A DNA stretch of 45,237 bases, the filler included, from Jimgerdemannia flammicorona (lineage: Eukaryota), in the NCBI GenBank assembly GCA_003990765.1. It is 2 parts of 2 records of this genome, joined end to end, with 100 filler letters (N's around TTAATTAATTAA, not from the genome) between each part and the next. Parts side by side here need not be neighbours in the genome. Positions count along the whole stretch, not along the records: positions 1 to 22,570 come from RBNJ01001246.1; 1 more part is not named here. One strand, written 5' to 3'. Below, in pieces: positions 1 to 30,075 of this stretch. How positions within the stretch are numbered: the first letter of the stretch is position 1; the number at the start of each line of letters is the position of its first letter. Both the position numbers and the translations under genes were made by a program. The notes beneath the pieces are model-generated. The model saw only the letters and a program-made list of their open reading frames with translations, was not told where the DNA came from and searched no databases.

Positions 1-31
<31 letters not shown>

Positions 32-955: not shown

Positions 956-2960
956 TTAGACCTTATGTCAGAATACCACTAGATCTGAATCAAGCCAGAA
1001 GATATTCCCAAGACTGTGTTCATGACCTCTTTTGGACTCTATGAATTCCTGGTCTTAGTATTTGGTCTCACCAATATACCCACCATATTCCAGACTCTGA
1101 TAAATAAGATATTCAAGGACTAACTATTTATTTTCCTATTGATATATCTTGACAACATCCTGATCTTTAGTACAACTAAAGAAGAATATCTCAAATATAT
1201 TCAAATAGTTCTGGAGATTCTGTGAAAATACAAGCTTTATGCTAAGCTCAAGAAGTGTGAATTCTTCAAGGAATAAGTCAAATACCTTGGCCACATTATC
1301 TCTGCACAAGAAATTTAAGTAGACCTATACAAGATAGAAGCAATTGAAGAATGGCCCATTCTGTCAAACCTCACAGAACTCTGATCCTTTCTTGGTCTAG
1401 CTGACTATTACTGCTGTTTTGTCAGAAACTTCTCTAATATTGCTGAGCCACTGACTAACCTCATGAGAAAGGCCCTGCACTCAGACCACTATATACCCTA
1501 CACCTGAGACCTCTTCTGTCAATAAGCCTTTCAAGAACTTAAGAACTATCTGACCCATGCTACAGTCCTGCATAATGCAGATCAAGGCCTAAAATTCATA
1601 GTCACCACTGATATATTGAATTTTGCCATTGGAGCAGTCCTATCACAAGATGATGGCAAAGAATATCACTCTATTGCTTTCAAGTCCCATAAGCTAGCCC
1701 CAGCTGAACAAAAGCTAGCTACTTATAAGAAGGAACTATTAGTAATAATATATACACTAGACCACTGGCAATGCTATCTAGAAGGTATTGAGTTTGATGT
1801 CATTACTGATCATCAATCTCTCAAGTATATCAACACCCAATCTACTCTGTCATGTCTACAAGCCAAGTGGAGTCTCAAGCTTCAAACCTTCAATCCAATG
1901 ATCATCTACAAGCCTGGCAAGATACTTATAGTATCAGATACCTTATTAAGATACCCAGACCTTACCACAATCATATAAGTTATCTTGGCATCAGAATTTC
2001 TAGACCAAATCAGGCAAGCTTACAAAGAAGACATAGTTGCCACTAGAGTTTTCTCAAATGAACTCAAGGATATATATACTATCAAGAACAACCTGATCTA
2101 TCATCAAGATCAAGTTTATCTATCTGAAAACATAAACCTATACTATAAGGTTTTGCAAGAACACCATAACTTCCCTCTTACTGGTCACCTGGGAATTGAG
2201 AAGACTGTCAAGAACATCCAATGCCACTACTATTGGCCAAATATGGTCAAGGAAATCAAGAACTATGTTGCCAGCTGTAATCTATGTCAGCACAACAAGT
2301 CTACCAACCAAGCATCTGCCAGTTTGCTACAACCACTGTCAATTCCTACCAAGAAGTTTGAGCAAGTCACCATGGACTTTGTAACTCAACTACTACAAAC
2401 TTAATCTGGTACTGATACTATTATTATATTCATTGACCACCTGACCAAGACTATGGTTGCTGAACCAACCACTACCAATGCTACTGGACTTGAGATTATA
2501 AGAATCTTCTTCAAGTCTATCTTCTGTTACTATGATCTACCATAAATAATTATCAGTGATTGTGACCCCAAGTTTACCAGTCACTTCTGACAAACTCTCT
2601 TCAAGACTCTAGGAACCCAATTGGCTATATCTACTGCCTTTCACCCACAAACTGATAGACAAACCAAGTATATGAACAAAACTCTAGAACAAATACTTAG
2701 AAACTATGTTTCTTATAAACAAGATGATTGGGACATCTATCTGACTTATGCAGAGTTTGTATATAATAATGCTATCCAATTATCTACTGATCTTTTCCCT
2801 TTCTGGTTACTCTATGGTCAAGATCCCAAGACCCCTGCAAGTCTATTCTCTTTTAAGAAAACCAGTCAAATACAAGTCCCAACCACCAAGAACCTTATAG
2901 ACAAAATGGATGAACTACTCAAGATTACTACTGTGAATCTTCAGAAGGCTCAACAGCATC

Positions 2961-3367
2961 CCTGTCATCCATGCACCTCTGTCCCCTTCCTTACCTCCAT
3001 ATCCAAACACTAATCCTATTCAACATAATATGACTTTCCATAGTCCCTGTGCTAATGTGTGCTACTATTATAGTGAAGCCAGTCATCAGGCTTGTGAATG
3101 TGGCAAGTCTACCCCCATATGGTAAGGAGAAGAAGCTGAAGGATTGTGAACATAATCATGCCATTACTAAGAAGTCAAGAAGATGAAGATGTTGTGTAAA
3201 GAGAAGGTTTGGTGTACTATGAGTATAAAGAGTTTGTTACAATGTCTGATGAGTTTTCCACCAATGTTACTCTATTCCTGGGTGTAATTCCCTTCTGAAA
3301 TAAGCTACAACTGCAATGAGAAGGGCCACTTGAGCAAAGAAACAAAAAAAAAAAAAAAAAAAAAAAA
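2961..3367 (+). pseudogene. Retroposed, unspliced 5' fragment of a GIS2/CNBP/Byr3-like CCHC zinc-knuckle gene
   Basis: 15-bp TSD AG(G/A)CTCAACAGCATC at 2946-2960 and 3368-3382; poly(A) tail. ATG at 3030 reads MTFHSPCANVCYYYSEASHQACECGKSTPI-C, interrupted by a GTAAGG...AG intron (3122-3304), then YNCNEKGHLSKE. Confidence 0.8.
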
Positions 3368-4171
3368 AGACTCAACAGCATCAAGTCAAGTATACTGACA
3401 AGAAATGCCATGATATCACTTATACTATTGAAGATTAAGTCCTACTATCTACTGAGAACCTCAAGATATAATCTCAAGTCAACTGTCCTTTGAATAAGTT
3501 CCAACTCAAGTATATTGAACCTTTTAAGATTACTAAACAAGTCTCTGCATCCTCCTACTATCTCAAGCTACCTGAAACCATGAGAGTATATCCAGTCTTT
3601 TATGTGTCACACCTCAAGACCTGGAACCAGTCACTACCCTACCCTGGTCAAATTCCTAAGCCTTCTACCCCTGTGATTATCAAAGACCATATTGAGTATG
3701 AAGCTGAGAAAATCCTTGACAAATGAATCTACTACCATCATTCTGAATATCTAGTCAAGTGGATGGGTTATCCTAAATATGATGCTATCTGGGAACCACT
3801 GGTCAACCTCAAGAACTCTCAAGATCTAGTTCAAGACTTCAAGGCAAAACACATTACTTAATCCCTATAGTGACTTCCTTGGATTGTTGACAATCTATGG
3901 CAATGACCAGTGTCTTATGCATCAGAAGTTTACTTTGGGACCCTGGAACCAGTAAAACATTTAATGAACAAAAAGTCTACCAAAATAAAGCTACTAGCTG
4001 GGTTCAAACTCCTCCTAGTTGATTAGTCTGATAATAGGCCCTCTGCCCTATATAAGGATGGCCAATTTCCACCAATGTGCCAATTCAAGTTTGAGAAATT
4101 TTGGTTAAGTATACCTAGTCTTATATTACCTAAGAACTTAATGAGGATATTGTTTCTTAAGGAGGGAGGGA

Positions 4172-4642
4172 TGTAACAATTTCACAGTCATATTTAGTCT
4201 TAGTACATTTTTGTGTCTTTTAGTTAGTCTTTTCTTATTATTTCTTAAACATTTTACTATGTTCCATCACCTTCTACTTACTTAGAAATCTTCTCTTGGT
4301 ACCCAGACACCATCAGAATATTCTTGTCTTTTCTTGGTACCAAGCATCTTATCTTAGCTAGTTATGGAACCTTTTAGAACATTGTAGAATAGTATTAGTC
4401 AGCTTTGCTGAGAATCTATTTCTTGGCATTTCTCTTTCTTTCCAAGATCCTTCTGGATCTTTCTTTCAGATCATGTATAAATATCCTTATTCTCTATCTG
4501 AATAAAGCTCAGAATATTTTCTCCCAGAAATTTCTCAAGTATATTTGAACCTTTAAGTATCTCTTCAAGCTATATACATACTTAGACCAACTAGAGCTTC
4601 TAGATTTAGCTACTTCTTCTTAAAGAAACTAGAACCATTACA
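4172..4642 (+). repeat. Chromovirus 3' LTR (TG...CA, 471 bp)
   Basis: Starts TGTAAC right after the PPT and ends ATTACA; has internal TATAAATA and AATAAA; clearly homologous to LTRs at 39574-39980 and 28536-28617. Confidence 0.92.
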
Positions 4643-7600
4643 CCCTATACCAGTCTTACCAATCTCATCTATAGAACCTTTATCACCAGCCCTTACAGAA
4701 TTGAAAATAGCTCCTATAAGAATACCTAAACTCATTCTACTTCATCTAAGATCCAGAACACTATCCTCAAGATACCCAAGCACCCCCATCTCCAGTGACA
4801 GTTCAGAAAGCAAATCAGAGTCAGAATCCAAATCAGAATCTGGACCAGAACTAGAATCAGAAGAAAGAGATAATAAAATAGCCACCTTATTACCAACCTT
4901 TGCAGGATACCCAGAGAAAGACTCCAGAAAATTTCTTAATAGAATTGAAGGAATCATAGTCCTGAGGAATCTCTCAGATAAAAGAAAAATCACCATCTAT
5001 AAGACCCAGCTCAGAGAACCAGCCAAAGGAATTTTCCACCAAACAGCAAATGACCCACATTTAGAACTAGTAAAACAGATATTAGCAGTAGCATCTTATG
5101 AGCTAGAATATGTAACCATGGTTCACTGGCTTATCAAAAAATATGCAGGAAATGAAACCCACCACAAGGTCTAAGAATCTATTATGAAGATAAAGATAAA
5201 TCTCAGATAATCACCCAGAGCCTTCTTTATAAGAATCCAGAAGAGAATACATACTGCTGGGTTCAATATCACCAACTAAGACATCATAGGTTCAATGATC
5301 TTCATGAATGGGATTCTCCTGAATATTACTTAGCATGTTTACTCTCTAAGCATCAGAAGGTCTGAAGAGCAAGTAGACATAGCTCAAGAATTCTTTGATG
5401 TCAGACAAGAAACTACCTGAATTGACTATGATAAGAAGGATGATAAGGAGGACATCTTGGTCAAAGCCCTACAAGAACTCCTTCAAGGACAAGAGAGACC
5501 TGAAGAAAGAAGAGCAGCCAAAGAAGGAAAGAAGAACAGAAGTGAAATCCAAGACCTCAGCTCTAAGTTGGACTGATTGGTTTGATAGATTGAAAAACTT
5601 ACCATATGTAAAAATTGGAGTTATTAAGATAATAGAGAATATTCTCCACAAAGGAGCCAAGGTTATTCACTAAGAGATAACAGAAACTACTAGTAAGAAG
5701 AAAGAAGATACTCTGTCTGAGACAGAGCCCAAGTCCAATGCTTCCACTATAGACAATTTGGATACTATACCACTAAATGTGATAATAAAAGAAGTGACTG
5801 AAGGGACTCAGAACTACTAAACCAAAGGAATGATATTCAGTATAAGAAGACTGAAGCCCATTCTGTTGAAGATTTCAAAGAAGCAAGTAACAGTGAAGAC
5901 TACAGTGATCTAGACTTGTACTCTACCAAGATTACTATCTGAAAAACAGTCTACCCAGCAGAAAAAAGAAAGAGACCTGTAGGAAGGCTATCCAGAAACA
6001 TCAGTAGAAGAATCATCCAAGAAGAAGATAAAGAACATGAGAAAGAACAGGTAGAAATACCTCCCAGAACTCTCTCATTTTTTATCTCCAAGACAAATGA
6101 GCTACCACCAGAAGATGAAGAAATAGAACAAGAAAAACAGGAGCCTGCTGCTCTAAAGCCCAAAAGAAGTACACCCCAAAGACCATGTCTAGAGATATCT
6201 ACAATAAAGTCTGGCAGAAGATTCAAGAGGTCAAGATGAAAGTCCCTCTCCTGCAGTTCTTGCAACTGATACCAGCTGGAGTCTAAAACAAATTACTGAA
6301 AACCACTAGGTCTAGCACTGGCCAAGTTCTCATCCCACAGTAAGAGCCAGCCCCCATACTTATCTAGGCTGCAGAGAGATATATCAGCATCTATTTATAT
6401 GGAGACATTGGAGGACAAAAGGTAAAAATCCTTATAGATACAGGAGTAGCTATCTGTGTTATTGCTAAATAATTCCTAGATACTCTCCAATGACCCATTG
6501 ATGGACTATCTAATCTTAACATTATAGTAGCAGATAGAGTCTGAACTCAACCCCTTGGAGAAGTATTAAACATCACTATTTCCCTTGAACATATTCAGTT
6601 CTTTATCCCAAAAGCTATTGTCACTGAAGCTGTTACCTATGATATGATTCTTAGTACCAACTAGATGAAGGAAATGAATATAGTTATTGATATTGGTCAA
6701 TAAGTACTCAAGTTTGACTACTGAGGCAAGAAGTACAGAGTTAAGGTAACTAGCTATAAGCAATCAAAGAAGAAGAAGATCACTATCCAGGAAGAATATG
6801 CCAGTAGTGAAGAGTCTACTATAGAGGAAGAAGAAGAATCTGAAGATAAAAATGATCCCAGACTCAATTCCCAAATTAACCTGGTGGATAATAGATCAGA
6901 AGACAATATATGGACCAAGAATACTGTCCCCATTACTATCAGAGTTATTGCAGGAGAAATCAAAGGATGCCCCATCTATCTCAGAAGACACAAGTGCCCT
7001 AAGCACTCCTCCAAGATCATTGGGACAAGGAATTTACCTGGTATAGCTTGCTCTGAGTATAGAAAGAAGAAGAAGAAATACAGACATATTCCAGAAATAC
7101 CTACAGCTGAAGCTGCAGAAGTACAAGCAATTTAGAACCAAGAATCATCTGAAAAAGAGGAAGCTCTTGACCAAGAAGTCCCTGAACAAGAAGTATCCAA
7201 AGAAGAAGAAGTCCCTGAACTCATTCCCTAGAATAATCCTTGCTGGACACCACCTGAAGATAATGACCCTTGGAATATAGAAGAAGGACTCAGTACAATC
7301 TCCATCATCCTCAAGAAAGAAACTTACCAAGAAAGGGCCTTTCAGCTAGGAAGATGTCCACATCAAATGGTCTTCCACTCTCTCCAAGACTACTGCTATC
7401 AGTGTTATCTACTAGACTAACAGAAGAGACAGAGACCCCAAAGACCAGAACTCCTGAATATAGTTGCACAGTCAACTATCTTCCAAGAGATTACCACTAA
7501 GTTACAAAGTCAATTCAGAGGACAAGGCCTCTTCACCTGAACAGAAGTATATCCATTGTTCACCCTTCCTCCAACTTATGACCAAGATGGATACCAATTC

Positions 7601-8041
7601 CTAAAATAACAAGAAATCAACAACTGGGAACATTATTTCCAAGTAATGGAATATTGTAATCATAGAAGACACCCAGACTGCCAAGACTGCAGACATTAGA
7701 AGATTCACCTCAGTCATGATGTTGCAATCTATACCTTAAAGAGAGGAGATAACAGAGGTCAGATCTGAAAAAGCCAGACCAAGAAGCCAGAGAGAAGAAC
7801 TCTCAAGATCTACAATTTAGAAGAAGACATTCTAGCTCTCATCAGACATATAACCTACTAAAGATGAGTAGAAGATGCCATCAACTTCATGGAAGCCCTA
7901 GACCCTACAGGAAGAAGAGAGATCAACTATCTCCAAGACTCTTCTACTGGAGCCAGATAGCTACACCTCAACCTCAGAGCCTGGAGGCTCTCTACTAGTG
8001 GAGCTTCTGCCCAAAGATAGTCCAAACTCAGTAGGAATATT

Positions 8042-8438
8042 GTCCAGTATATCTTGCTACATCCCAAGACCAAACCCCCAACCAAAGCTCACCCATAAGA
8101 TATAGAATATGATCTTCACAGTCTGGAGGATAAATTCATCAAGTCTGAAAAAACATTCATAATCAGAACTGGACTAGCCATATAGCTACCTCAAGGAACT
8201 TATATCCAACTGACCTCAAGGTCTGGACTTATCAGACAAGAGATAACTATAGAAGGAGGAACTATTGACCCAGGATACATAGGTGAAATCAAGGTCATTC
8301 TACATAATAGCAGTACAGAATAGTACTGAATCATTAGAGGACAGAAGATTGTCCAAGCAGTCTTTATGAAGGTCAAGACTCTATAATTACAAAAAGTCTC
8401 TGAACTGACTGAAGGAATAAGGATTTGAAAGTTCAGAT
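8042..8438 (+). pseudogene. dUTPase domain within gypsy pol (between protease and RT)
   Basis: Manual translation shows all five dUTPase motifs in order, degenerate: IEYDL, TSRSGL, GTIDPGYIGEI, GQKIVQ, GFESSD. Confidence 0.9.
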
Positions 8439-11288
8439 AAGAAGGAAGTACATCTCCTTTAAGTCAATTACCTCAAGAGGAATGCTCTCCAGCAAGTATA
8501 CCACCAACTAGTTATGCTACACAAGAACCTCATTCTGAAATCTGGAGAACAAACCACCTTCAAAATCTTTGCACCACCTGATCTCAGAAATCTCTTCTTT
8601 GAACCCAATGAAGACATCCTATACCTAGACATAGAAGGGCACACCTTCCCTGACAAGATGAACCCAGTATACTCTTGAGCAATCAACCAAAGTTGAAAGA
8701 CTATCATCTTGCTAAAAGAAACTATCATAGGATACCTGGTGTCTTTTCTCAACTGAACTCATAGAGAAGTTTATGAACTAAACCTCTTGGAAAACAGCAA
8801 AAGGTCTCAGAAGAAAGAAAAGGTCCCTCTGCAACCCAGGAGACAGTGAAGCATTCTACCAACATTGAAGAAGAATTGACACCTCAGTAATAGTAATAAC
8901 TAGTAGAACTCCTCAAAAAATATAAAGATATCTTTACTACTGATTATGGTAACCTACCATATAACCCATCATATCACTACAGCATAAATACAGAAAATGC
9001 AATACCTATCTGACAGAAACCCTATAGAATACTCCATTACTTAAAAATATTCAAAAAGAAGTACATTCAAGAACTCTTAGACAATGGAGTCATCTGACCC
9101 TCTACCAGTCTCTGGGCCAGCCCTATACTTGTTGTACCAAAGAAAGGAGAATGGAGACTCTGTATAGATTACAGGAAACTCAATTCAGTCACCAAAAAGG
9201 ATGTCTATCCTTTGCCCAGAATTGATGACCTTTTGGATCAGTTATAAGATATCAGATACTTCAACAGTATAGACCTTTTCACAGGATTCTATGAGATCTC
9301 TATAGACCCCAAAGATATTCAAAAGACAGCTTTTCTTGCTCTAGAAAAACTGTTTGAATATCTCTAAATATTCTTTGGATTTTGTAATGTACCCCCCACC
9401 TTCCAGAGGATGATGAATTCAGTCTATACCTCCTTGATTTACTACTGTCTGATTGTATATATGGATGATTCCAACATCTATTCAGTAAATTTTGAAGAAT
9501 ACCTATACTACTTAGAAGAATTCTTCAAGTTCACCCACAAGAACTATCTGAGACTCAATGTCAAGAAATGCTATTTTGGAAAACAGAAACTTGAATTCCT
9601 TGAATTTATAGTTTCAAAAGAAGGAATCCATATAGACTCAAAGAAAACTAAGAAGATCAACAATTGGCCAGTACCCAAGATCCTGAAGGAAATACTATTA
9701 TTCCTGATGCTAGTATCCTACTATAGAAGGTTTATCAAGAACTTTACCCAAATCACTGTCCCAATCTGAGTTCTTCTCAAGAAAGAAGTACCTTACAAAT
9801 AGACAGAATCATAAGAGAAAGCCTTCAAAGAACTCAAGAACTATATGACCATAGTACCAATTCTTGTATGCCCCAATCTATAGAAGCCATTCATCTTATA
9901 TATAGATGCTTTCAAAAATGGCCTAGGAGTGGTTCTAGCCTAAGAAGGATCTGATTAATAATACCATATGATAGCTTATATAAGCTGAGCTACCAATCAG
10001 CAGCAGATGAACTATAGTAGCACCAAACTGGAATATCTTGTAGTTATATGGGCAGTCACCCTATTCAAGCATTATCTCATCAGAAAAAAATTCACCCTAA
10101 TTATAGACCATGCAGCCCTCAAATGGCTATTCAACCATAAGGAACTCACTGGAATTCTAGTCAACTGGATTCTTATTCTCTAAGATTACAAAATCATCAT
10201 CATCTATAAAGCAGAAAAAGCTCACAATAATGTTGATGTACTTTTTTGCCAGCCCCAATGAACCAGAAGGGTGTCTCAAGAAACTATACCCTAAAGGAAG
10301 CTCCTCAGACCATCAAGGTATAAGAAGATCTCATCTGAAAAGAATATCAGAAAGCCCACCAAGGATAAGCAAATATAGAGGAAAAGTTGTAAATAATATA
10401 CCAACATTGGCCCAATCTTAGAACACAAGTCTGAGATATACTTAAGAAATATGACATCTATTAGAAGTATCAAGAAAGAAAAAATTACCAAGCACCACTG
10501 CAACCAATCATACTACTATATAGCATCTTTCAGAGATGGAGAGTAGATATAATTGGACTCCTACCAGTTACACCAAAAAGAAAGAATATTTGACCAAGTG
10601 GCCTGAGGCTTTCTCAATGGAAATTGCAAATGTCTTGACCATTATAGGTCTTCTTCATAGACTTACACTCAGATATAGACCCCAGAAGAACTCATCTCTA
10701 ACTGAGACATGGAATTCATTAATAATATAATTATAAGTTATATCTGAATTCACAAGATCCACCTCAAATGGACTATATAATACCACCCTCAGATGAATGG
10801 CATAACAGAAAGAATGAACCAGACTATTAAGAAAGAACTTGCCTGAGTCAATTCTGCTAACTGGGATCTTTGTTTATCTGAGATCTTATGGGAAATTCAG
10901 AATACCCCTATCACCTCTATTAAAAAAAGCCATTTGAAATGATATTTGCTAAGAAAACCAGAACTACTAATCATGAGAATCTTGGAGACCTTCTTGAGAA
11001 GACAGAATAGTTATATAATGTCCAAATTCAAATTACCAAAGCCCAAGAAAGATAAAAGAAGTACTATGATCAGAAACAGAAGGACCAAAAGATCAAGATT
11101 GGAGATCAAGTACTAGTTTGGAGAAATATAATTGAAATAAACTTTGCTATCAAATTGGAGCCTAAATGAGAAGGACCTTATCTTATATAACATTAGAGAA
11201 ACCAGCATCTATTTAAGAGATATAAATAGATAAATCCTAAGGACACTAGTATATATCAATTGTCTCAAGATATATCTTGCCCCACATC

Positions 11289-11801
11289 ATGAATCAGAGA
11301 GTTAACAACTATCTTCAGACTCTTATCCTCAGCTCATTTCAATTACTGTCAGTTCCCCTACTCTAATTCCAAGAAGTCAATGGAAATATCCTCTAGAAAA
11401 TCCAGATTCATCAAGAGAATCTTGTCCTGGTCAGACAATTGTTACAGATCCATCAACTTCAGACCCACTATACAATTGGAGAACAATTACAGAACCTTCC
11501 AGCCCCAGAACAAATATATATCAGAAATACTATAAGACTATCAAGAAGAGATATTACTGCTGCAGACAGGCTCTACACTATTTATAAACATAACTCTGTA
11601 GTCTTATTATAAGTACAATTCCCCTAGTATGATATATAAAGAATGAACCTAACCACCTACCTGAGTATCATCAATGCTGTCGAAATCCTATTCTCAGAAG
11701 AAGAAGAACTCTTGGAATAGAGCAACCATAGTATAGATGATGAAGATAATAGAACAGGTATTGATTCAGAAGATACTTATTCATACTGAGATAATAACTA
11801 A
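11289..11801 (+). pseudogene. Extra ORF3 between integrase and PPT (~170 codons, unknown function)
   Basis: One continuous frame, MNQRVNNYLQTLIL..THYTIGEQL..TAADRLYTIY..EEEELLE..DDED. Its stops are all compatible with C>T changes from Gln/Arg codons. Confidence 0.6.
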
Positions 11802-11978
11802 AGAACAGTCTGAGGACAGACCATTCTTTAGTAGGGGTTGATTTGATAAACCAAAATATACCACCTGAATTATAACTTAACTAGATGATATAAATAATTA
11901 GTATAGTAACCAAACACAGCAACCATTGCTGCAGAAAACTGTATAAATAGCCAGACTACCAGATAAGGTATATCTGTG

Positions 11979-12071
11979 TAGGACCTACATACCTATACTA
12001 GATCTGCACATCTGTGCTAAATCTGCATACTTGTGCTAGACCTGTACACCTGTACTAAACTAGTATATCTG
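11979..12071 (+). repeat. ~5 tandem 19-bp repeats in LTR U3 (CTAGATCTGCACATCTGTG-like)
   Basis: Units visible directly upstream of the TATA box. A 9-bp TTATCTGAG tandem array also lies at ~12536-12585. Confidence 0.8.
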
Positions 12072-12639
12072 CTATAAATAGTAATCTATAGTTAGCAATA
12101 TAGTAACCAGATAGCAACCATAATATATAAAATACTCCAAAGACAAGAGTGAATAAACCTTAGTCCAAAAAGTCTGAATTCAAAGCAAAAGACAAGTCTG
12201 CCTATTATACTTCAAGAGATATGTCTGCCAAAAGTCACTTGATCCAGGAAGAATTGTAACACTTAGGAGAAATACCCATTCTAAAGCCACTACTAGGAGA
12301 TTGTAAGCATTGGTTTTCTTTTTCACTCCAGTCCACTTTTCAATACAAAGCCTTAGTTCACTTGTCAGATAAGCCTGAAGTTTGCTGTCAAGTTTAAGAA
12401 AGAACTTCACTACCATTTGAGAAATCTGCTACTTAAGGAATAAGCTACTATATTTTTGGTTTGCTTGCCAGATAAGCCTGAAGAATCCTAGTTACCTGCA
12501 TTTCCAGAGAGCCACTGATTCAGAAAGAATCCACATTATCTGAGTTATCCAAGTTATCTGAGTTATCTATACTATCTGAGTTATTAGTTTATTCTCAGTG
12601 AGTCTAATTTAGGAAGAATTCACCACCAGTATTATTTCC

Positions 12640-13826
12640 TTTTTTTTTTTTTTTATGGACTCATGTCCTGTGGAATTTTATTGGAAGGGAACCTAGACTA
12701 TATAGGTCAAAACCCTCTCCCACCACCCATCAAGCACTGTCCCCCCATTAACCTAGGCTAGCTATTATCCAGCAGCTCAACTATACCAGGCACAGCAGGG
12801 CCTATGTTGGCCCACACCTCATTCTGCATACCATGCTCTCCCTACCACCAAGGGAAACTCAACTATATGCCAATAACTGAAAGCACATGCCTGAGAACTC
12901 AATATATATACAAGGCCATGCTTGAGCTGAATAGAATAACCCCTGCCACTCTAAAGAGAATGACAGGTAAAGAAAAATTCTCATCAAAGTACAACATAGT
13001 GGATAGGGCCTGGTTCTTTCAGTTGAGGTGAGTAAAGGACTTATACATGAGGTAGGAAGAAACCCCCAATACCCCACTACTCAAGCCTGTGGGCCTCAAT
13101 CATATTGCCATGTCAGCTCCTGGTTCCAGTTGAGTACAGCCAAGATGCCTGAAATGGGTAGCCTCAGGCCCCCTGACCCTCTCTGATGACTGGGGCCCAA
13201 CTCTGCTGACCGCCAAAAGAAGCCGAGAGTGATATCTACCACCTAATCATGCCATACCAATCAAAAGGCCCCACCAAAGCAGTACCTGCCCCAGCCCTGA
13301 TGACCACCCCCAGCCTGGCATCCTACTGGTTTATCGTTATCACCCTTCTTTCTATCTGTGATAGCCATCTCCCCTCCCATTCTGACAACACTTAAAAAGC
13401 AGTCACCTACACCAGAACCATGCTTGCCAGGAAGCTTGCCAAAGCCAGAGGGCCTCACCACAGACACCAAAGACCTACAGGTAACCTATACTGAGCACTT
13501 GATGCCCAAGGTCAGCTGACTCTCTATGTAGCCTAAGACATATCGAGACACTACCTTGTTGGTGATAGCAAAAGGATGAAGGTGCTGCACCAAAACAGAT
13601 ATATATACTCCAGATGTAGCCGAAGACACCAGAAACTGTGAAAAAGTGGAGAAGACACTGATCTGACACCAATAAAGAGGCAACTCATCACTATTGCCCT
13701 CCTCCCACTATACCTATGCAGGCACAGCAAACCAACCCAAGGTAGAGGGGGTAATAATAGGGGAAAGGGGACTCGGAAGATTGCCTACCAAACCTTGTGA
13801 CTAGTAAGGTAGCAGAGAAAGGACTG
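12640..13826 (-). mobile_element. ~1.19-kb non-autonomous poly(A) retroposon (SINE-like), copy 1
   Basis: Poly-T at 12640-12654; 15-bp TSD ACCAGTATTATT(T/C)CC at 12625-12639 and 13827-13841; end-to-end homology with 41065-42268. Confidence 0.9.
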
Positions 13827-14123
13827 ACCAGTATTATTCCCAGTAAGAAGGATCTATATCATCCTTTATTCTTAGAAGCCCATTAATTCAGGAAGAATCT
13901 GCCACTAGTATAATTTCCAGTGAGCTGATTTAAAAAGAACCATATCAAATTAAGTTATCTGCTAGAAATTATATACTTTTGGAGATCATTATACTATATA
14001 AAAATTATCATGCAGCAATTGCATACTTTTGGAAATAAGACTGTTACTCAGAAATCATATACTTTTGGAGATTACCTATTACTTAAGAAGAAAACTACTT
14101 ATACTATACATAAAATTTTACCA

Positions 14124-14992
14124 ATTCTCAGTTGACCTAAGAAGGAAACCCATTCATACAAATTAATACTATACTCAGAGAACTGTCCCAATAAGAAAAC
14201 TGACAAAATTGATCATTGTATTCAGAACTTGACTATTATATCACTAAATACCAATAAGGACCTCAGAAATCTTAGAACATTTTGTTACTTTTGACAAAGT
14301 AACTAGGGGCTCAAGCCAAACTATGTCAACTCTCGGCCTTGTAATTTGCCTCTATTGAGCCAGATATATTATAATGCCAATGAGACTATCAGAGCCAAGA
14401 ATTACAGAAATTACAGATGAGGATAATGATGAGGATACCTCTTTGAAAGATAAGAAAAAATATAAATCTAAACTACAAAATGAAGTCAAAGCAGATTTAG
14501 AAGATTATTGAGATCTTAAGATATCTCATTATAAATATTATATAAACTATATCTATAAGTATACCTATATAACAATAACTGGTGAGCTAGTAAACTATAA
14601 TAAAGTCATACACTTAGATGATAAAAAGAAGTAGAAAAAAACTATAGATAAGAAATATAATTTACTTATTGAGAATAATATATAGAATTTAGTCTTTTTT
14701 TCAGTAAATTAATAAGCTATAAGATCCTGCTGGGTATATAAAATTAAATATAATAGTAATAGTAATATAGAGTAGTATAAGGCCCAATCTGTAGCAAAGG
14801 AGTATTTATAAGAATATGGTGTAGACTATGATGAGACCTTCTCACTGATATTCAAGCTTACTTTGCTTAGAATACTTCTTGCAATTGAAGTCAAATATGA
14901 CTATAAAATTCATTAAATAGATGTTAAGATAGTCTTCTTGAACAATAATATAAATATGGAGCTATATATTTATCAATCATAGAGATACAAAA
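14124..14992 (+). mobile_element. Ty1/copia relic (integrase-RT linker and RT N-terminus)
   Basis: AIRSCWVYKIK..YKAQSVAKEY..GVDYDETFS..IDVKIVFLN are copia RT motifs; heavily mutated. Confidence 0.88.
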
Positions 14993-16224
14993 TATATATA
15001 CTGGACTTACTATATATGCTGACCATAATGCAAGCAATTAATTCTTATTGATAATATATTAATAAAAGCTTGACCAGATGTACTACTTATTAATATAAGC
15101 TTGCTATACATATATTGAGTTTACTATATATATAGGCTATATATGTACTGAGCTTACTAGTACTACTTATCATATGCTAGCTATAATATAAGTAATTTGA
15201 TAATATATATATTGAGCTAAATATGTACTGCTTATCAACTTATAATAAGATCAATACAACATATATATGTTGAGCCTCTTAATAGGTCTCAAGCTTCTTG
15301 AATTATTACTTGGAGCTAAATTGTACAGCTATGATCAGAAATTAGTACATTTCAATCTTTTAAGCTATAATTATACAATATTTATATATATTTTTACTGA
15401 ATTCTATAGATTTCTCTACAATATGAACTCATGAAGACATTATGATATTTCTAGTAGTGAATAGCATAATTACTATATGTATAACTATACTGAAATTTAT
15501 CACTCTTTGTACTTTGTTCTTCATTTATATAAAATTGGTATATCTTAATTTTTTAAGCTATAGTTATATAATATTTATATATATTTTGCTAAGTTTTATG
15601 AATTTCTTCATATACTGAACTTATGAAGACATTATGATATAAATATATAACTAGGTTTTATATTTTTTTTTTTCATAAATCTGTATCAAACTATTAATAT
15701 AGATATTGCCTCAGGAACTTGAGAATATGCTTAATGTGTTTATTTTCATTAATATGGATTTTTGGTTATAAAAATGATAATAGAAGTCAGTATACCTCAG
15801 TTGTATATATACTTTGGTGGAAATAATCTTATATAACTTTTGTTGAGATACACTTAATCTGCTTGAATGTGACTTTTTCTTAATATCTTAAGACTGACAA
15901 AAATTGCTTATTTTCATTAAGATTCCATATTTTTCTGCATTTTTTCTAGGTGGAGTTTTGCATTTTTTCCATATAGAAGTAACTATTTTTCCTCATCAGC
16001 AAATTTGCTTGCCTGATCCAATTGGCTAGCTGCAGTTAGCTCATTGACCCCTGGTTCATCACATTCAGCCCACACAAAATTTTGACTCGGGACCACATAC
16101 CTCACTGCGAGTTAATCCCAAATTATATAATGATTTTTGCAAAAAAAAATTTGCTAAAATATTTAGCCAATCAGAAGCCACCATGGTTCAAATATTTCTG
16201 CAGCCAAATTTGGCTGCCTTACTA
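14993..16224. mobile_element. AT-rich relic, probably one end of a DNA transposon
   Basis: CpG-depleted; short repeated motifs (GTACTACTTAT); ~110-bp direct repeat at 15339-15448 and 15532-15640; ends in the palindrome GCAGCCAAATTTGGCTGC plus CTTACTA at the boundary with CpG-rich DNA. No partner end found. Confidence 0.35.
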
Positions 16225-16529: not shown

Positions 16530-19500
16530 CTACGACTTTATACACGACCCCGACGGTCCCCTTGGATCATTCTCATTATAAGTGCACACCTCCACTGTTA
16601 CTCTCGCTGGCGACAACCCACCCGACATCTCCCTTGCCTCAGGTAAGAAGCTTGCGACAGGGGACGTCGGTTCCGATGAAACGGGTGACGATGCGGGCGT
16701 CAGTGCCGGGGTCCGGGTGATGGGAGAGATAGCCGCGGGAGCTGGGGTGGCGGCGCGATTATGCTGCATGTGGGACTTGACAAGATGACCTGCCGCTAGT
16801 GCGGCACACAGGCTGAGCTCTCCGGCCATGCAAGCCGCGCAGATGATCCTCGCGAGCCGTTGGGCGTTCTTCCCAGGCTCTGTGGGGTGCGGTCCGCGGA
16901 CGCCAAGGAAGTCGAGCATGGACTGCTGCGGAGGAAGGATGGTTCCGCCGCCGATAGTTCCGACCTCGATGCTCGGCATGGTACATGAAATGTGCAGGTC
17001 GCGACCCTCGTTGACAGCAAACATGAGGGTGATGCAGTTTGAGCTCTCGACGTTCTGCGCCGGGTCCTGTCCTGTGGCGAGGTAGATGGCGGTGAGGATG
17101 TTGGCGGCGTGTGCGTTGAAGCCCCCGATGGATCCGGCCATGGCAGAACCAATGAGATTCTTGGAGATGTTGAGCTCGACGAGCGCGGCGACGGTGGTCT
17201 TGAGCACCTTCTCGACGACGTGACCGGGAATGACGGCCTCGGAGACGCACGACTTTCCGCGTCCCTCAATCCAGTTGACCGCCGCAGGCTTCTTGTCCGT
17301 GCAGTAGTTGCCCGAGAGGGAGATGATCTGCATGTCCGGGAAGTGATCCGCCATGACTGCCAGCGCTTTCTCGCACCCCTTGGAGATCATGTTCATGCCC
17401 ATGGCATCACCGGTCGTGGTTGAGAACCGGATGTATGCCAGTTTGCCGGCCAGCGCGACCTTAAGCTTTCGTAGCCTGGCGAAACGGGATGTGGAGTTGA
17501 ACGCGTCGCGCACAACCTGGCTCCCCTCCTCCTCGACCCACCGCTTGGCCGCGGCAGCGCGCGTGATGTTCGGGAACTCGACGCAAGGCCCGCGGGTCAT
17601 ACCGTCCTGCGTAATGACAGTGATGGCGCCGCCACCTGCATTGATGGCCTTGCACCCACGAGCTGTGGAAGCGACGAGGCAACCCTCGGTGGTGGCCATT
17701 GGGATATGGACAGACTCTCCGTCGATGTCTATTGGCCCGGCGACGCCCACGGGGATGGGCATGTACCCGATGACGTTCTCGCAGCAGGCGCCTATGACCT
17801 TGGAGTAGTCGTAGCTCTCATACGGGAGCAGGCTGCTCTCGAGGGATTTTGTGCGGGACCCGCGGGAAATCATGGCGCGACGTATGAAGACAGCGCGTTC
17901 AAGATCCCCAAGGACCTTCTCGAGGGCGTAAGGGGCGATTTTTCCGACATTGGCGAGAAGGAGAATCTCGTCGTCGATGAGGGTCGGGGCACCAAGGTCG
18001 GGATTCTTGAGGATCGCAACGCAATCTTCCACGCTGCGGCATTCGTCAGAGACGGGGATAGGCTCCGGCTTAGGCGCGGACTTGACTACGGGTTTGAGGG
18101 TGGGAACAGTGAGGTGTTGCTGTTGCTTGGGGAGTTCCTGGGCAGGGCGAACGGCGACGGGGGCGGCATGGGCGATGTGTGCGATATGGGCAACGGCCTT
18201 CTCTGACGGCTCAGCGGCTACCGTTTGCTTATTGAGCGACGCGGCACGAGATTGCTCGACGACGACTTGTTTGGGTTGCTTCGCAACGTTGAAGAGGTAG
18301 ATGTTGAGGAAGAGCGAGACAGACAGGCCTAGGGTGATCCATTTGGATATGATGGGATCCTGGACGTAGACGTCGTAGATATGCAACAGGGACCCAAACA
18401 GGGACCCAAACACCTTCGGCACGAACCCAGTCAGCAACCGATGCTGGGACGACATGACATGGAACAACAGTGGCGGCGTAACCTCGACGATGAGCGGCAA
18501 CTGCGCGCGCGCGCTCTGCTTATGCTGGTCGAGTAGCAGCTGCAGAACGGGGTTGATGGTCGGATCGCCGATATCGACGCGTGGGTGGATGTCGACGTGG
18601 GCCAGGCTCGGGGCCGTGGCGGCGCCCTTGACCTGGAGGGTCGTGGTGATGTTGAAGACGTGCATGATAACAAACCCGACGATCATGAGCAACTTGACGC
18701 GAGCAATGGCCGGGTTCTCGACATTGTCCTTCTTCGACAACTCGTAATTGCTATCGCTAAACGCCTTGTTCATGATTTGCTTGAAGTATGCCGGGCTCGA
18801 CGCTCTTTCTTTCTCTTTTTCAACGATGGCGGTCTTCGGGTCGCTTCCATTGATATCGCGGATGCGACGGAGCTCGAGTTTGAGAGTGAGGACGGCGGTG
18901 TAGAAGGTGAACATGAAGACGAGATCATAAAAGAGGAGGAAGGCCGACAGGAAACAGAACTCGCGCAGGCCGGGAACGCCCGAGGCGGCGCCGGCGAGGA
19001 GGACGAGGATTTCAAAGAAGACGTCGCGAGCAATGTTGCCCCCTACGGCGGAGACGGCCTCCATTACAGACTGATGCACGCTGCTCTGAACGCTCGCGGC
19101 GTCGGCGAAAGTCTGCTGTGATGCCGCCTCGGAGCTTCCCTGGAGCACGCGCTTGGTCAGGGTGTAGGGGCGATCAAAGCCGATGGTGATGACGAGGAAC
19201 GGAATCGCTTCGCTTTGGTGGGAAGAATGTGTATAGGGGGGTTTTTTTAAAAAAAAATATGTATATGTGTGTGTGACGAATAGATGGCTAAAAGTCAGCA
19301 AACAGTGGAAGATTCGACGGATTCAAGGAAACAAAATAATAGATCACCCACCTCAAAAGAACGGGATTAACAGTGCCACCGAGTAGATGGACGGTTAAAA
19401 CCGAGAGCAGGAAGGCAAAGAAACCACCAGCAAGGACGGCAGTGGCTACAATAGTAAAATGCAAGGAAAAAGAAATCCAGGACAAAAGGAATTAGATTTT

Positions 19501-20788
19501 GTATCTTTCAAAGAACAAAAATCCAAACTTTCACCTATTGCTCAAAACCACCATTTCACTCTGCAGCATCCAACCAAATCACCAGTCCCCTCCCCCTCGC
19601 CACCTATCACTTTCATGATCCCCCCACAACCCATCTCCTACCACCCAACCTACCAAGCGACGTCCTAGATCCAATTGCGCCCATGTTAACATACAGCGAT
19701 GCGAACGTGAAGATCATCATGACGTAGCCCATGAGTACCACGAAAATGTCGATACTCTCCGCATTCTGTGGAGGAGAGATCGTACACGAGTAGGGTGAGC
19801 AGGTGAGCGTCGATCATGGCGAGGGGACAAAAGATGCAAATGGCGTGAAAAGGTCGACAAAATGGGGTGAGAACGAAAAGAGGACAGGCGAAGCAAGCAA
19901 ATTAGAAGGAAAAATAATACCAGAAATACATACATCAATAAGCTCTTTAACCTTTAACACGACGTTCGCAGCAATCATGGCCAACCACGCAATGGTGCTC
20001 TTCTGATGGTGTTTCCCGCTCGATTGGCTGACGAGGCCACCGGTGTTAATGGACGCGACCTTATCCTCCCATAGATTAGCCAGCTGGGACCTGTACGGGC
20101 CGTTGGCGTCGAACGCATAGCTCAGGATGAGGGACAACGCCGAGTTAACGTTCTCCGTGGTGTTAAGTCTAAGATCCTTGAACAGGAACGAGGACGAGTC
20201 GACGTTCCGCGCGATCGTCGCGAAGATATCTCTGTCGGCGGCGAGTTTCGCCGGGTTCTTACCCCAGATCTGCAACGGTGTTTGCGTGAAGCATGGATCT
20301 TCGTCGGAGAACAGCGGATTGGAGCGGGGCCGCTTATAGCAGAGGTTGTCATTGTAGAGGTACTTGTTCACGCCGTCGGCGACAAAGAGTTCCTTCTCGA
20401 TCATTTCTTGGAACTGGAGGACAGAGGTGAGGACGGGGCGAGTGAGGACACCCGACGAGGGTTGACCCAGGGCGTTGGGCTCTACGGGGTTGGAGATGAC
20501 GATCTGTTTGAGCTTGAGGCGGACGGCGTTGGTTGGGGGGTTGGAGAGATTGTGGTCGTAGGGGAGGAACTGGTCTGTTTCGCGAGTTGCCGAGACGAAG
20601 GCAGGGTCAACGATGGACTGGGAGTTATCGACAAAGATTTCCGAGTTTTTGGCAAGGTGGAAAAGGTAAAAATAGCAGAAGGAAGCGAGGATGAGGGTGG
20701 CGACAATCATCTCGATGGGGTTCTTGGATGAGCGCTTGGCTGCGTTGTGAAGCGTACGCCTCGTGAAGCTAGAGAGTTGGCCGGACAT
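16530..20788 (-). CDS. HMG1: Class I HMG-CoA reductase, ~1247 aa; exons 20788-19934, 19765-19654, 19445-19352, 19212-16530
   Basis: Catalytic motifs CENVIG, PMATTEG, DAMGMN, CTDKK, GQDPAQN; sterol-sensing segment LLSEAIPFLVITIGF; N-terminal HPIH-like NPIEMIV. Three GT-AG introns give an in-frame 3744-nt CDS. Confidence 0.97.
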
Positions 20789-21149
20789 GCTGAGAATGTC
20801 GGTCGTGGTTGCCTTTTGGTGGTGGTGTTGTATTTGGGGGGGGGATATATAGTTCCCGGCTCTGAGGAGTGGAATGAAGGGGGGATTAGCAAATGCCAGT
20901 AGGTCTCTGATGGGTTGCGGAATAAGTAGCAAGAGGTGTCTGTACCTAGTTATGCTGGGCAAGGGGGATAGAGGTACTATTTGTGGGTCTATGGCACGCT
21001 TGTTGGGGGAGGAAGTGGACGGAAGGGCTGGAAAATACACAGAACGGGGGGGTTCATATTATCCTTAACCAAGATATGCGTACAAAGCACGGGGGGTGGG
21101 GCATGCTCGAGCCCTGGATTCAGAACGCGCCCAAAAAGAATTATAAAAA

Positions 21150-22570: not shown

Positions 22571-22670
22571 NNNNNNNNNNNNNNNNNNNNNNNNNNNNNN
22601 NNNNNNNNNNNNNNTTAATTAATTAANNNNNNNNNNNNNNNNNNNNNNNNNNNNNNNNNNNNNNNNNNNN
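22571..22670. other. Artificial contig-joining linker (44 N + TTAATTAATTAA + 44 N)
   Basis: Six-frame stop linker in a 100-bp spacer; flanking pieces are 22570 and 22567 bp and end in homopolymer runs. Confidence 0.95.
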
Positions 22671-24041
22671 CCCCCACCCCTTCTTAATAAAAGACCACTT
22701 TGTCAAACACCATCTCTATCTACCCACCACTCTGTTCACAGATTCCTTCTACTAGCCAGTAATATCACCCACCCTGGGGACCCCAACCAACCCACCACCC
22801 AGTTATCAGATCTCCCAACAACTCCTTCCACCTTAACAACTTCTCTTGCATATCTATCTGTTACCCTTTCTCAAAAACAAAGAGCCAATAACTAGCTAAC
22901 CCTACCCATACTGCTAAAACCCACCCTATAGTGAGCCACCCATTGCTGACACCTCCCACTAGTTGAGATTACAAATTCTCCCAGCAACCTCTCTCTCCAT
23001 ATGGTCTCCTCTCTACACCTAGCCAGTCTCCTATAGCTATCCAAAAGTCCCCCAGAACCTTATATTCTCCCAGCCAATGTTCTGGCATTTGTACAAATCC
23101 CCCAACTTGCCCTACATTATAATACTCCTCACAATATAGTCAGCCACCATCTACCAGTTACTCAGTATGGAAATTCAACATGATATTCCTCTACAGTATC
23201 TACCATCATATTACCCAGAACTTGGGAGAAAGCCACCTCTGCACCTTAGTACTCCAGGACCAGATTCTGGCCCAGTCTCACTCCTCACCAATCCTCACTG
23301 CCTGCCAACTACTTGGCCAAAGATCCTGGTCAAGACCCTGCTAACACTCCACTCCATCACTAATATCAAACTCAGCAAGTAGAACCCCCCCCAGTAGTAG
23401 TCGGTCCTATTGCTACATAGCTGGGCCCTACATTACCTCTCCCTCATTATCTCATCAGCACAGACCTATCCAGTGTACTCCATCCACCACCCCCCACCAG
23501 AAGCCCTTATATGTACTATAGCTGTTGGCTTCCATTCAGATCCACCAGAGAGAGCAAATTCCCTGAAGACTCCCAAGAGGAGAATCTCATCTCTCACACC
23601 TTCTGTATCAGTGGCACCCAACCTTCTCTCTGTAGTTCAATAGTTCTTTTCAACCACCAAGTTTGCAAGCAGTGTAGCTGCTTAGGGAAATCCACCAGGC
23701 CTAGTCCTCCCCTAACTATCAGTATTGCAAGAGTATTCCAACTGATCTAGGACCTTCTCTCTGCTCAAATCCAATCTCTAGCCAGTTTTGTCAGCCTCTT
23801 TACCACCTAAGTCAGAAAGTCTGAGTGATAGGCTACATACTAGAGCTTGGGAAACTAGTAGACATTCAGAATTGACATCCGCCCTGCCAGGGAGATATGG
23901 CAACCCCCCCAACCTCTAAGGATCTCTCTCCAATTGGCCACCTTCCTCTTCTACCACACTTGTGGTAAGATAGATCTATATACAGAAAGAAAGATATCTA
24001 GATACTATATCACCTCTCCTGTAGGGACAATTGTTCCTTCA

Positions 24042-24111
24042 GGTAGGGGTGGGGCACTGTGTAATATATAGAGAATAGATGGGTATTAATAAAGAATGGA
24101 GTCCAATTGAC

Positions 24112-24142
<31 letters not shown>
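24042..24142 (+). mobile_element. Very short 5'-truncated LINE 3' tail inserted antisense into a LINE
   Basis: AATAAA..GAGTCCAATTGACTAT plus poly(A); the host frame LMGGDI|EGTIVPTGEV resumes across it; same tail family as 28407-28535. Confidence 0.8.
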
Positions 24143-24145
<3 letters not shown>

Positions 24146-25193
24146 CCCCTCCCATAAGCCTATTACTCAATACCATTATCTCACACTTATGCCAGTTGAG
24201 TTTCACCCCAGAGTATACCTCATACCATTCCACTATCTTCTTAAATATCTCTATGTCTGCTACTGATCTAAGGCCAACCACTATATCATCTGCAAAGGCC
24301 CCCACCTTCTACACCACACCATATATAGAGAGCCCTACTACCTTCTGATATATCCTGTCCATCAAAAGTTCCAATGAAAGGGCATAAAGGATAGGAGACA
24401 GCAGGTCTTTCTGAGGAACTCCTCTTCCAAAGGGAAATGCCAAATCTCAGTAACCATTACACATCAGTGCTACTCTACTACCCCCCAATAAATTCAATAT
24501 AGAAATCTAAAACTGTAAGGGTACATCAATTCTGTCCAGCACCTTGTCCAGCCACACCTGCTGAATATGGTTGTAGGCCTTCTCTTGATCCAAAAAGACC
24601 AGTCTACCATTCAGTCTACAAGCCTGGGCCCCTTCAATGATGCTATGCATCCAGACAGTCCTATCTCTGATAAGCCTGCCTCCTACAAAGCTCTGCTGCT
24701 CCTCACCCAGCACCTGCTGGGCAACCTTCTGTAGCCTCACAACAATCACCTTAGTCACCATCTTCCTGTCCATATCCAGAAGCATGATTAGCCTCCAGTT
24801 CTTCCAGTCCTCACACCTCCCCTTATCTTTATATAATAAGGCTACCAGCCCTAAATCCTACTCTCCAACCCACTTGCCTTTCAGAAGAACATGGTCACAG
24901 AGGGCAGCCATCTCTCCTAACACTCCAGGGACCTTTGTCATCTTCTTCCAGAAGTCTCAAGGTAACTCATCCTCCCCTGGTGCTGTCCCAAGCTTAGTTG
25001 CTGCAAGGACTCTCTGGATCTCCTCCTCTTGCACTGATAAGATCAAGTCACTCAGTCCCTCTACCTGTAGCAGCTTCCACTCCTCCAGTGTGTCTCCAAT
25101 TGCCTCTTCATCAGCACCCCCTTCCTCCTCACTCCACAGACCCCACTAACTCTCCTTCAAAACCCCCAAGATCTGCTGCATACCATGCACCAT

Positions 25194-25584
25194 TAGTACT
25201 CCCAAACAAGTTGAATCAATTTGAATCAAATCGAATTGAGGGTTAAACAAGTCGAATTGAATTGGGGATTTTTCAATTTGAATCAATTTGAATTGAATCA
25301 AAAGTCGAATCAAATTGAGGGTCTGATTTAAACCCTAATTTTCAAAATGCAATAACTCAGCGTAAACTCACCCAAATCTAATTTACTTTAGCTTGTTAGA
25401 ATCACATTAATACGGTGAATCTAACAAGCTAAAATATGTTAAATTTGGATGAGTTTTCATCGAGTTATTACATTTTGAAAATTAAGGTTCAAATCGAACT
25501 TCGAATTGAATTGGACCCTTGATTCAATTGAATTGAATTGAGTTTGGGCCAAATTCAATTCAATTCAATTCATTGAGAGCACTA
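25194..25584. mobile_element. hAT-type MITE, copy 1 (391 bp)
   Basis: 8-bp TSD TGCACCAT; TIR TAGT(A/G)CTC(C/T)CAA; GAAT(C/T)-type pentamer arrays; long internal palindrome. Confidence 0.93.
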
Positions 25585-28406: not shown

Positions 28407-28535
28407 TTTTTTTTTTTTTATAGTCACTTGGACTCCCTTCCTTTATTAATACCCATCTATCCCATATAATTACAATGATCCCACCCCCTATCCAATCCCC
28501 CTAGGGGGGCCCCCCCCCTACCCCTTCCCTGTGAA
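28407..28535 (-). mobile_element. Short LINE 3' tail at a deletion junction
   Basis: Poly-T followed by TATAGTCACTTGGAC..TTTATT; joins truncated LINE ORF1 to a truncated LTR, with no TSD. Confidence 0.85.
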
Positions 28536-29663: not shown

Positions 29664-30075
29664 CTCAATTTCATATAAGTCAACCCCAAGGCCCAGATCT
29701 CTCAAGCACAGTCAGAAGGAGCCATTGGTTTAGACCTTCAAGTAGTACAATAAGTCACCATTCCTACACATGAAAGAAGACTCATTCCAACTAGCCTCTC
29801 AGTTGAAATCCCCAAGGAACATTATGCAAGAATTGTACCAAGATCTGGCCTCAGTTTCAAGCACTCATTGGATATTAGTACTGGAGTCATTGACCCTAAC
29901 TTTCAAGATGAAATGTAAGTCCTACTGGTCAACCACAAGAACCAACCTTATACCATCAATGAAGGTGACAGAATTGTACAGCTCATCTTGGAGCAAGCTA
30001 CTCTACCAGTCATCAAAGAAGTCACCAAGTTGTCTTCAACTAAGCAAGATCAGAAAGACTTTAGCAGTACTGACA
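29664..30075 (+). pseudogene. dUTPase domain between the gag zinc knuckle and protease
   Basis: Motifs AIGLDL, VPRSGL, GVIDPNFQDE, GDRIVQL, DFSSTD; in the same frame as the upstream knuckle and the downstream protease. Confidence 0.92.

Follow-up and report, generated by a model that had tools for sequence, protein, structure and literature searches.

Two old poly(A)-tailed insertions in the genome of Jimgerdemannia flammicorona as probable copies of a non-coding, LINE-dependent retroposon

The DNA analysed here, referred to as the window, is a stretch of 45,237 nucleotides (nt), filler included, from Jimgerdemannia flammicorona (GenBank assembly GCA_003990765.1), a fungus of the Endogonales in the Mucoromycota. 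It holds two copies, C1 and C2, of a 1.17-kb element that ends in poly(A), is flanked by short target-site duplications, and is probably a non-coding retroposon that depends on a long interspersed nuclear element (LINE) for its mobility. An N-containing junction at 22571-22670, made up of two 44-N runs with 12 called bases between them, splits the window into contigs 1-22570 and 22671-45237. An initial annotation, made from the sequence alone, had described two independent insertions on different contigs, and because the window consists of two contigs joined by N runs, that placement is correct. The parts of the two copies are as follows:

12625-12639, unstranded: C1 target-site duplication, 3' side in element orientation (ACCAGTATTATTTCC), a 14/15 match to 13827-13840 with one T indel
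12640-12654, minus strand: C1 poly(A) tail, T15 on the plus strand
12655-13826, minus strand: C1 body, 1172 nt, with its 5' end at 13826 (CAGTCC...) and its 3' end ...GAGTCCAT
12677-12682, minus strand: C1 AATAAA polyadenylation-type hexamer, 22 nt ahead of the tail
13827-13840, unstranded: C1 target-site duplication, 5' side in element orientation (ACCAGTATTATTCC)
41048/49-41064, unstranded: C2 target-site duplication, 5' copy ((A)TCAAATCCTTCTCCTT)
41065-42240, plus strand: C2 body, 1176 nt, start GAGACC..., end ...GAGTCCATT
42211-42216, plus strand: C2 AATAAA hexamer, 24 nt ahead of the tail
42241-42269, plus strand: C2 poly(A) tail, A29
42269/70-42285, unstranded: C2 target-site duplication, 3' copy (TCAAATCCTTCTCCTT)

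The two bodies align end to end, with 952 of 1160 aligned bases identical (82%), 184 transitions, 24 transversions, and 10 gap columns, and their homology stops exactly at the duplications, beyond which the outer flanks share no similarity. The duplications measure 14/15 nt at C1 and 16-17 nt at C2, where the leading A is indistinguishable from the tail; they are unrelated to one another, begin with GGAAAT and (A)TCAAA, respectively, and in both copies the poly(A) tract directly abuts the target DNA. The surroundings of C1 contain short tandem repeats, and the 14/15 match of its duplication lies far above the 76% similarity found among the neighbouring host repeat units. C2 can be proven independently to be an insertion, since its flanks, which belong to a decayed antisense LINE ORF1 (first open reading frame, ORF) fragment, are contiguous in two uninterrupted paralogues within the window. 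The first empty site lies at ~32372-32386 in the reverse complement of the LINE named E5 below (39995-41063 corresponds to 33455-32372 and 42290-42583 to 32378-32075), and the second at 28199-28222 (40684-41036 corresponds to 27836-28199 and 42280-42466 to 28222-28410). Both insertions that the initial annotation had placed here are thereby borne out, along with their tails (A15 and A29) and their distinct duplications, for which it had given 15 and 17 bp.

The 5' end of the element is fixed. The first bases, CAGTCCTTTC and GAGACCTTTT, put the starts within one base of each other in both copies, a thin sample of two, and the common first position claimed at the outset holds with that tolerance. 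The start follows the pattern (C/G)AG(T/A)CCTTT, base 1 differs between the copies by a transversion and may be untemplated, and the first 120 nt are 60-65% pyrimidine. Neither long terminal repeats (LTRs) nor terminal inverted repeats were found in the element, which contains 0 inverted repeats, and its internal repeats amount to two short two-copy direct pairs of 15-18 nt, with no tandem or composite structure. The poly(A) tail, duplications of 14-17 nt, and lack of terminal repeats rule out a solo LTR, a DNA transposon, and a Helitron, each of which was considered.

Both copies have undergone CpG decay. Surviving CpG number 6 in one copy and 1 in the other, and at 21 sites one copy reads CA where the other reads TG. 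A de-mutated reconstruction, built from the two copies by choosing C or G at each transition difference, is 54% GC and contains at least 28 CpG, consistent with the GC- and CpG-rich ancestor that the initial annotation had deduced; the element's sense strand carries 316-328 G vs. 204-231 C. The window as a whole follows the same division, with 0 CpG vs. 270 GpC in bases 1-10500. The observed/expected ratio for CpG is 0.98-1.21 in the gene island at 16.5-22.5 kb, 0.24-0.31 in the younger LINE at 31.5-37.5 kb, and 0.00-0.12 elsewhere in transposon-derived DNA (within 1-15000, 22671-31500, and 37500-42000). In LINE and gypsy paralogue pairs, C-to-T change runs at 0.19-0.28 alike in CA, CC, and CT contexts, and only CpG stands out; on these grounds, a dinucleotide-specific signature like that of repeat-induced point mutation was rejected. 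General C-to-T and G-to-A changes have accrued in the copies, as in other transposons of the window. The CpG pattern suggests that CpG methylation in this Endogonales fungus is dense and confined to transposons, or that a CpG-directed mutator acts there, and a literature search found no paper linking Endogonales with CpG.

The element has no coding capacity. Among 20 stop-free ORF pieces of 40-89 amino acids (aa), taken from both strands of both copies, none matched Pfam at an expectation value (E) of 0.01 or less (best E 0.092), and a tblastn comparison of LINE ORF1 and ORF2 proteins with both copies and the reconstruction gave no similarity to a reverse transcriptase, an endonuclease, or ORF1 (best E 0.8). 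At 84 aa, the longest ORF of the reconstruction falls below the average for 200 shuffles (121 aa), and differences between C1 and C2 are spread over the three codon positions as 50/46/42 (p 0.71), that is, without bias. The protein atlas returned no match of 0.8 or more.

Nor is the element a classical short interspersed nuclear element (SINE) transcribed by RNA polymerase III (Pol III). ARAGORN found 0 tRNA genes, and Rfam, searched to E ≤10 with both copies, yielded no family at gathering score (best exploratory E 0.67) and no 7SL, 5S, or tRNA head. Runs of four or five T on the sense strand number 8 in C1 and 11 in C2, and the eight common to both copies argue against Pol III transcription. 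The 5' 100-nt ends fold no better than shuffled sequences (z +0.25 and +0.70), and the 3' ends are likewise unstructured against shuffles (z -0.07 and -0.41). The 5' hairpin that the initial annotation had thought possible can pair in both copies as CUACC/GGUAG, but the fold figures give it no support. Its other negatives, no reverse transcriptase, endonuclease, ORF1, or tRNA/5S head, agree with Pfam, tblastn, Rfam, and ARAGORN throughout; the AATAAA that it had reported is present in both copies; and, of the de-mutated consensus and database searches that it had proposed, a two-copy reconstruction was built, while Rfam and Pfam searches with the copies led to no known match.

A LINE of matching type is present on the same contig as C2, with a tail like that of the element and a duplication of comparable length:

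31664-37433, plus strand: LINE E5, full-length, L1-like, 5.77 kb, candidate autonomous partner
31828-33249, plus strand: ORF1 of E5, open, 473 aa
~33683-37075, plus strand: ORF2 of E5, APE endonuclease and reverse transcriptase, with 7 internal in-frame stops
31649-31663 and 37434-37448: 15-nt target duplication of E5, GATATATCTAACTTT

Neither Pfam nor PDB matches ORF1 of E5. ORF2, translated with X for its seven in-frame stops (mostly TGA), contains the Pfam domains Exo_endo_phos and RVT_1 and aligns to human L1 ORF2p residues 5-876 (E 5e-34), a far better match than that to R2 proteins (E 9e-13). E5 is nested in a gypsy-type pol gene, of which an uninterrupted paralogue lies on contig 1 at 1610-1628 (988-1628 corresponds to 31020-31667 and 1610-2955 to 37434-38778). 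The sense strands of the LINEs are G-rich, with a GC skew of +0.33 to +0.52 at 31.5-38 kb. The tail of E5 is A14, with AATAAAG 13 nt ahead of it, and three more tails of the E5 group lie at 1-28 (minus), 24115-24142 (plus), and 28407-28419 (minus). A tail region of 200 nt is conserved in the four LINE 3' ends at 1-952 (minus), 23915-24142 (plus), 28407-28619 (minus), and 37238-37433 (plus) (nhmmer E 4e-30 to 3e-43). These tails end in AATAAAG..AGTCCAA(G/T)TGACTAT-An, E5 itself in ..AGTCCAAGAG-An, and the element in AATAAA..GAGTCCAT-An; AGTCCA thus occurs at most 20 nt ahead of the tail in all four LINE tails and in both element copies. A separate poly(A) insertion of ~0.4 kb at 2961-3368 has a tail without AGTCCA. 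E5 is the likely driver of the element.

One rival reading makes the element itself a derivative of an autonomous LINE absent from the window, either a 3' piece from a transcribed truncated master or an internally deleted unit joining 5' and 3' untranslated regions (UTRs). Non-autonomous LINE derivatives with internal deletions have precedents in other organisms, the last 30 nt of the element resemble the resident LINE tails (AATAAA, AGTCCA, and an A tail), and its sense strand is G-rich, as in LINEs. However, no LINE of the window resembles the element in nucleotide or protein sequence, not even the full-length E5 when both of its UTRs are compared, and random 5' truncation would not be expected to leave two independent insertions with the same 5' end. 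Continuation into a LINE ORF2, which the initial annotation had counted, together with staggered 5' ends, as evidence against its reading, was looked for and not found among the window LINEs: blastn, both nhmmer profiles, and tblastn were all negative for the element as a piece of them. A weak tblastn match to the N-terminus of LINE ORF1 (E 0.01, uncorrected) vanished under composition correction and was discarded. Descent from a LINE absent from the window seems to us quite unlikely.

Relatives of the element exist outside the window, as peptides from other public contigs indicate. A 74-aa ORF of C1, used as a query, retrieved one relative, P0121 (121 aa, jgi), which as a query in turn retrieved P0122 (68 aa, ena). 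An exhaustive HMMER search with P0121 gave five matches at E ≤0.001, of which P0122 and P0125 (53 aa) map onto the element; the remaining three are long proteins with 7-14 matching stretches and were judged to be composition matches and set aside. All three short peptides map only onto the two copies, with composition-corrected E of 2e-6 to 3e-35, and are 63-76% identical to them. Where stops interrupt both copies in the window, P0121 retains Arg and Trp codons, as would fit a less decayed copy. Other collections were silent: in metagenome contigs a degenerate 27-nt pattern had 0 matches and a peptide profile hit 157 stretches, none confirmed by tblastn, while genome-collection contigs and viral contigs gave 0 matches in two scans each. 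The term family, as applied by the initial annotation, goes somewhat too far, since it covers only two DNA copies and three short peptides.

How abundant the element may be can be gauged from its density. Endogonales genomes reach ~240 Mb, among the largest in Mucoromycota (PMC10386755), and with that size, under random placement, a chance of at least 5% of finding two copies in 45 kb needs ~1,900 copies in 240 Mb. A high copy number would accordingly be an extrapolation from the window and not a count.

Another rival reading is that an exogenous polyadenylated RNA, for example a mycoviral or satellite RNA, was integrated twice by a LINE. Its sole point of support is that the element looks like an RNA of unknown origin, with defined ends, that was retro-inserted. 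The copies have no ORF and no RdRp-like or capsid-like Pfam match, they carry a canonical nuclear AATAAA at cleavage distance, and 18% divergence together with relatives at 63-76% identity fits long genomic residence better. We regard this origin as highly improbable.

Several known systems resemble the element. L1 ORF2p mobilises polyadenylated RNAs in trans (Alu, SVA, and mRNAs), and hominid SVA elements and L1-made processed pseudogenes are Pol II (RNA polymerase II) transcripts with AAUAAA and poly(A) that are mobilised in this way via target-primed reverse transcription and acquire target duplications of the L1 type. The resident LINE fits this scheme, as it aligns to human L1 ORF2p across the endonuclease and the reverse transcriptase. 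SVA, however, is built from several parts (a hexamer repeat, an Alu-like segment, a VNTR, and a SINE-R), whereas the element has no composite or tandem structure, and unlike processed pseudogenes it has no identified parent gene. With Pol III SINEs (derived from tRNA, 7SL, or 5S) it shares the non-autonomous, LINE-dependent character, the A-rich tail, and the target duplications, but it differs in lacking a tRNA, 7SL, or 5S head, in its length of 1.17 kb, which is well above the usual, in its eight T4-5 runs, and in having its own AATAAA.

Closer parallels are found in Sadhu of Arabidopsis and in Eg-R1 and Egh24 of Blumeria graminis/hordei, compared here by their descriptions. Sadhu elements are ~0.9 kb long and non-protein-coding, with a 3' poly(A), 7-16-bp duplications, a defined 5' end, and LINE-type target sites; they resemble neither tRNA nor 5S nor other small RNAs and lack Pol III A and B boxes (PMC2848041). 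The same paper states that LINE machinery yields duplications of 7-20 bp and is hijacked by non-autonomous elements (PMC2848041). Our element agrees with this description in being non-coding, in its A15 and A29 tails and 14-17-nt duplications, in the lack of a small-RNA head, and in a fixed 5' end with a pyrimidine-rich start. It is longer (1.17 kb), and it differs in host kingdom (a fungus), so that sequence homology is not expected and the likeness is one of description. Sadhu is low-copy, with ~16-21 full-length copies per genome, its duplications begin with A runs, and its element-start motif is CAATCGTTSC (PMC2848041); in contrast, two copies in 45 kb suggest a far higher abundance for our element, and its duplications start with GGAAAT and (A)TCAAA.

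Eg-R1 and Egh24 are SINE-like fungal non-LTR elements without Pol III A or B boxes, whose internal T runs would terminate Pol III, and they are described as having a functional AAUAAA, polyadenylated RNA that is presumably of Pol II origin, a dependence on LINEs, and >3000 insertions (PMC6022598). The AATAAA, the eight internal T4-5 runs, the lack of a reverse transcriptase or endonuclease, and the co-residence with a LINE all recur in our element. Unlike Eg-R1, whose insertions are without it (PMC6022598), both copies have genomic poly(A). Eg-R1 also carries a short peptide ORF (ROPIP1), whereas our element has no conserved ORF, and its host is an ascomycete without repeat-induced point mutation, whereas ours is a Mucoromycota fungus in which CpG is nearly gone, a comparison again made by description. 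At 1.17 kb our element also exceeds these relatives in anatomy, Sadhu and Eg-R1/Egh24 alike, in length.

We consider it probable that C1 and C2 are old and no longer active, and that they represent a non-coding non-LTR retroposon, transcribed by Pol II and dependent on a LINE, that works like Sadhu and Eg-R1. Its life cycle would proceed in the following steps:

(i) A source copy would be transcribed by RNA polymerase II from element base 1, presumably from an internal or downstream promoter.

(ii) The RNA would be cleaved and polyadenylated 22-24 nt past its own AAUAAA, with cleavage expected after ...GAGUCCAU.

(iii) The polyadenylated RNA would be taken in trans by the ORF2 protein (APE endonuclease and reverse transcriptase) of a resident L1-like LINE, for example the one at 31664-37433.

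(iv) Target-primed reverse transcription at a staggered nick would then produce a full-length copy flanked by a 14-17-nt duplication.

(v) After insertion, the copies have fared like all other transposon DNA of the window: nearly every CpG has been lost to TG or CA, and more C-to-T and G-to-A transitions have accumulated.

We infer that the family propagates itself and did not arise as retrocopies made from a single host RNA. The latter idea holds that the copies are processed pseudogenes, LINE-made from one host Pol II transcript (an abundant long non-coding RNA or an mRNA whose ORF has been erased), and never sources themselves. The hallmarks of the copies (full-length RNA, AATAAA, A tail, and duplications) are the same as those of any L1-type retrocopy, and the ancestor, as inferred, had not been depleted of CpG, a trait it shares with the window's unmethylated genes. 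Against it, two copies in 45 kb imply thousands under random placement, an uncommon number for a pseudogene family; a parent gene is named by no match in Pfam, Rfam, or the atlas, and no parent locus lies within the window; the differences between the copies show no codon-position bias; and the longest ORF of the reconstruction is shorter than in its shuffles.

Some observations weigh against a self-propagating, non-coding retroposon, and two of them lend support to a pseudogene. The duplications are free of substitutions although the copies are 18% diverged, which means that part of the divergence may predate insertion; such earlier divergence may fit distinct source subfamilies or an evolving source gene, and, taken as change within the source lineage, it favours a host transcript. 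In addition, the reconstruction has one unusually open frame: its 271 codons (positions 114-926) include only 4 stops, vs. 9 and 12 in the other two frames, and the external peptide P0121 continues past two of the four. P0121 is Gly/Trp-rich and not protein-like in the atlas, where its recognition score is 1006 and 91 of 100 known-family proteins reach 2300, a low value that also counts against processed pseudogenes. We read the open frame as a composition effect, though it may be the remnant of a lost short ORF. On balance, an origin as processed pseudogenes is unlikely.

Further points against the proposed retroposon concern its partner and its abundance. The profile built from the four LINE tails does not match the element, or its 3' 200 nt, at E ≤10, and the element's own profile matches only itself within the window (next best E 4). 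With no similarity between LINE and element at either end, the partner assignment rests on tail type, duplication length, and co-occurrence, and AGTCCA is a lead only, since the motif was noticed post hoc and the tails are otherwise unalignable. Only three relatives were found among 5.8 billion clustered proteins, which leaves the abundance without independent support. The family description draws on two DNA copies and three peptide-level relatives.

The remainder of the window consists of a gene island, decayed transposons, and low-complexity DNA. An HMG-CoA reductase gene occupies 16530-21058 (minus), with an uninterrupted 930-aa ORF at 16530-19322 (minus) that includes the sterol-sensing and catalytic domains and matches the J. 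flammicorona HMG-CoA reductase at NCBI (1247 aa) with 100% identity; an upstream ORF of 414 aa, which matches HPIH and SCAP_N weakly, probably represents the N-terminal exon of that protein. Decayed Ty3/gypsy-type pol fragments (RVT_1, RT_RNaseH, and Integrase_H2C2) lie at 988-4572, 9368-9766, 30400-31663, and 37434-39926, and the gypsy copies on the two contigs are paralogous, at 70-77% identity. The retroposon at 2961-3368, which is unrelated to the element, ends in an A25 tail, has a duplication of 12 nt (CTCAACAGCATC), and sits in a gypsy element; its site is uninterrupted in the gypsy paralogue at ~38766-38778, and no further copy of it occurs within the window. At 43420-44800 there is ~1.4 kb of low-complexity, extremely AT-rich DNA (GC 0.11 in 43501-45000), adjoined by a short CpG-normal stretch at 44850-45110 and followed by T24 at the contig end.

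The initial annotation had offered a non-autonomous LINE parasite or a retrocopy of an abundant RNA as the nature of the element and had seen in it a new system. The first part fits all the tests made, but the second was an overstatement, because the kind is known from Sadhu and Eg-R1/Egh24, and what we describe is a new family of an established kind, with no new mechanism, likened to those elements by their descriptions. A literature search, as far as the texts retrieved extend, found no account of Endogonales repeats or of SINE or non-LTR elements in Mucoromycota. A bolder proposal is that early-diverging fungi have here their first described "long SINE", Pol II-transcribed and non-coding, whose thousands of copies add to the inflation of the ~240-Mb Endogonales genome, and that it gains access to its partner through a 3' box, AAUAAA-5-20 nt-AGUCCA, ahead of the tail, common to it and all four tails of the main LINE group in the window, rather than through poly(A) alone. 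We hold this to be rather unlikely; if the 3' box is real, this LINE, poly(A)-tailed as it is, would be specific in the 3' end that it recognises. As a well-defined family with a candidate LINE partner, the element would be useful for the repeat annotation of Endogonales genomes, and it would also serve for dating bursts of transposition and as a neutral ruler for transposon-specific CpG loss.

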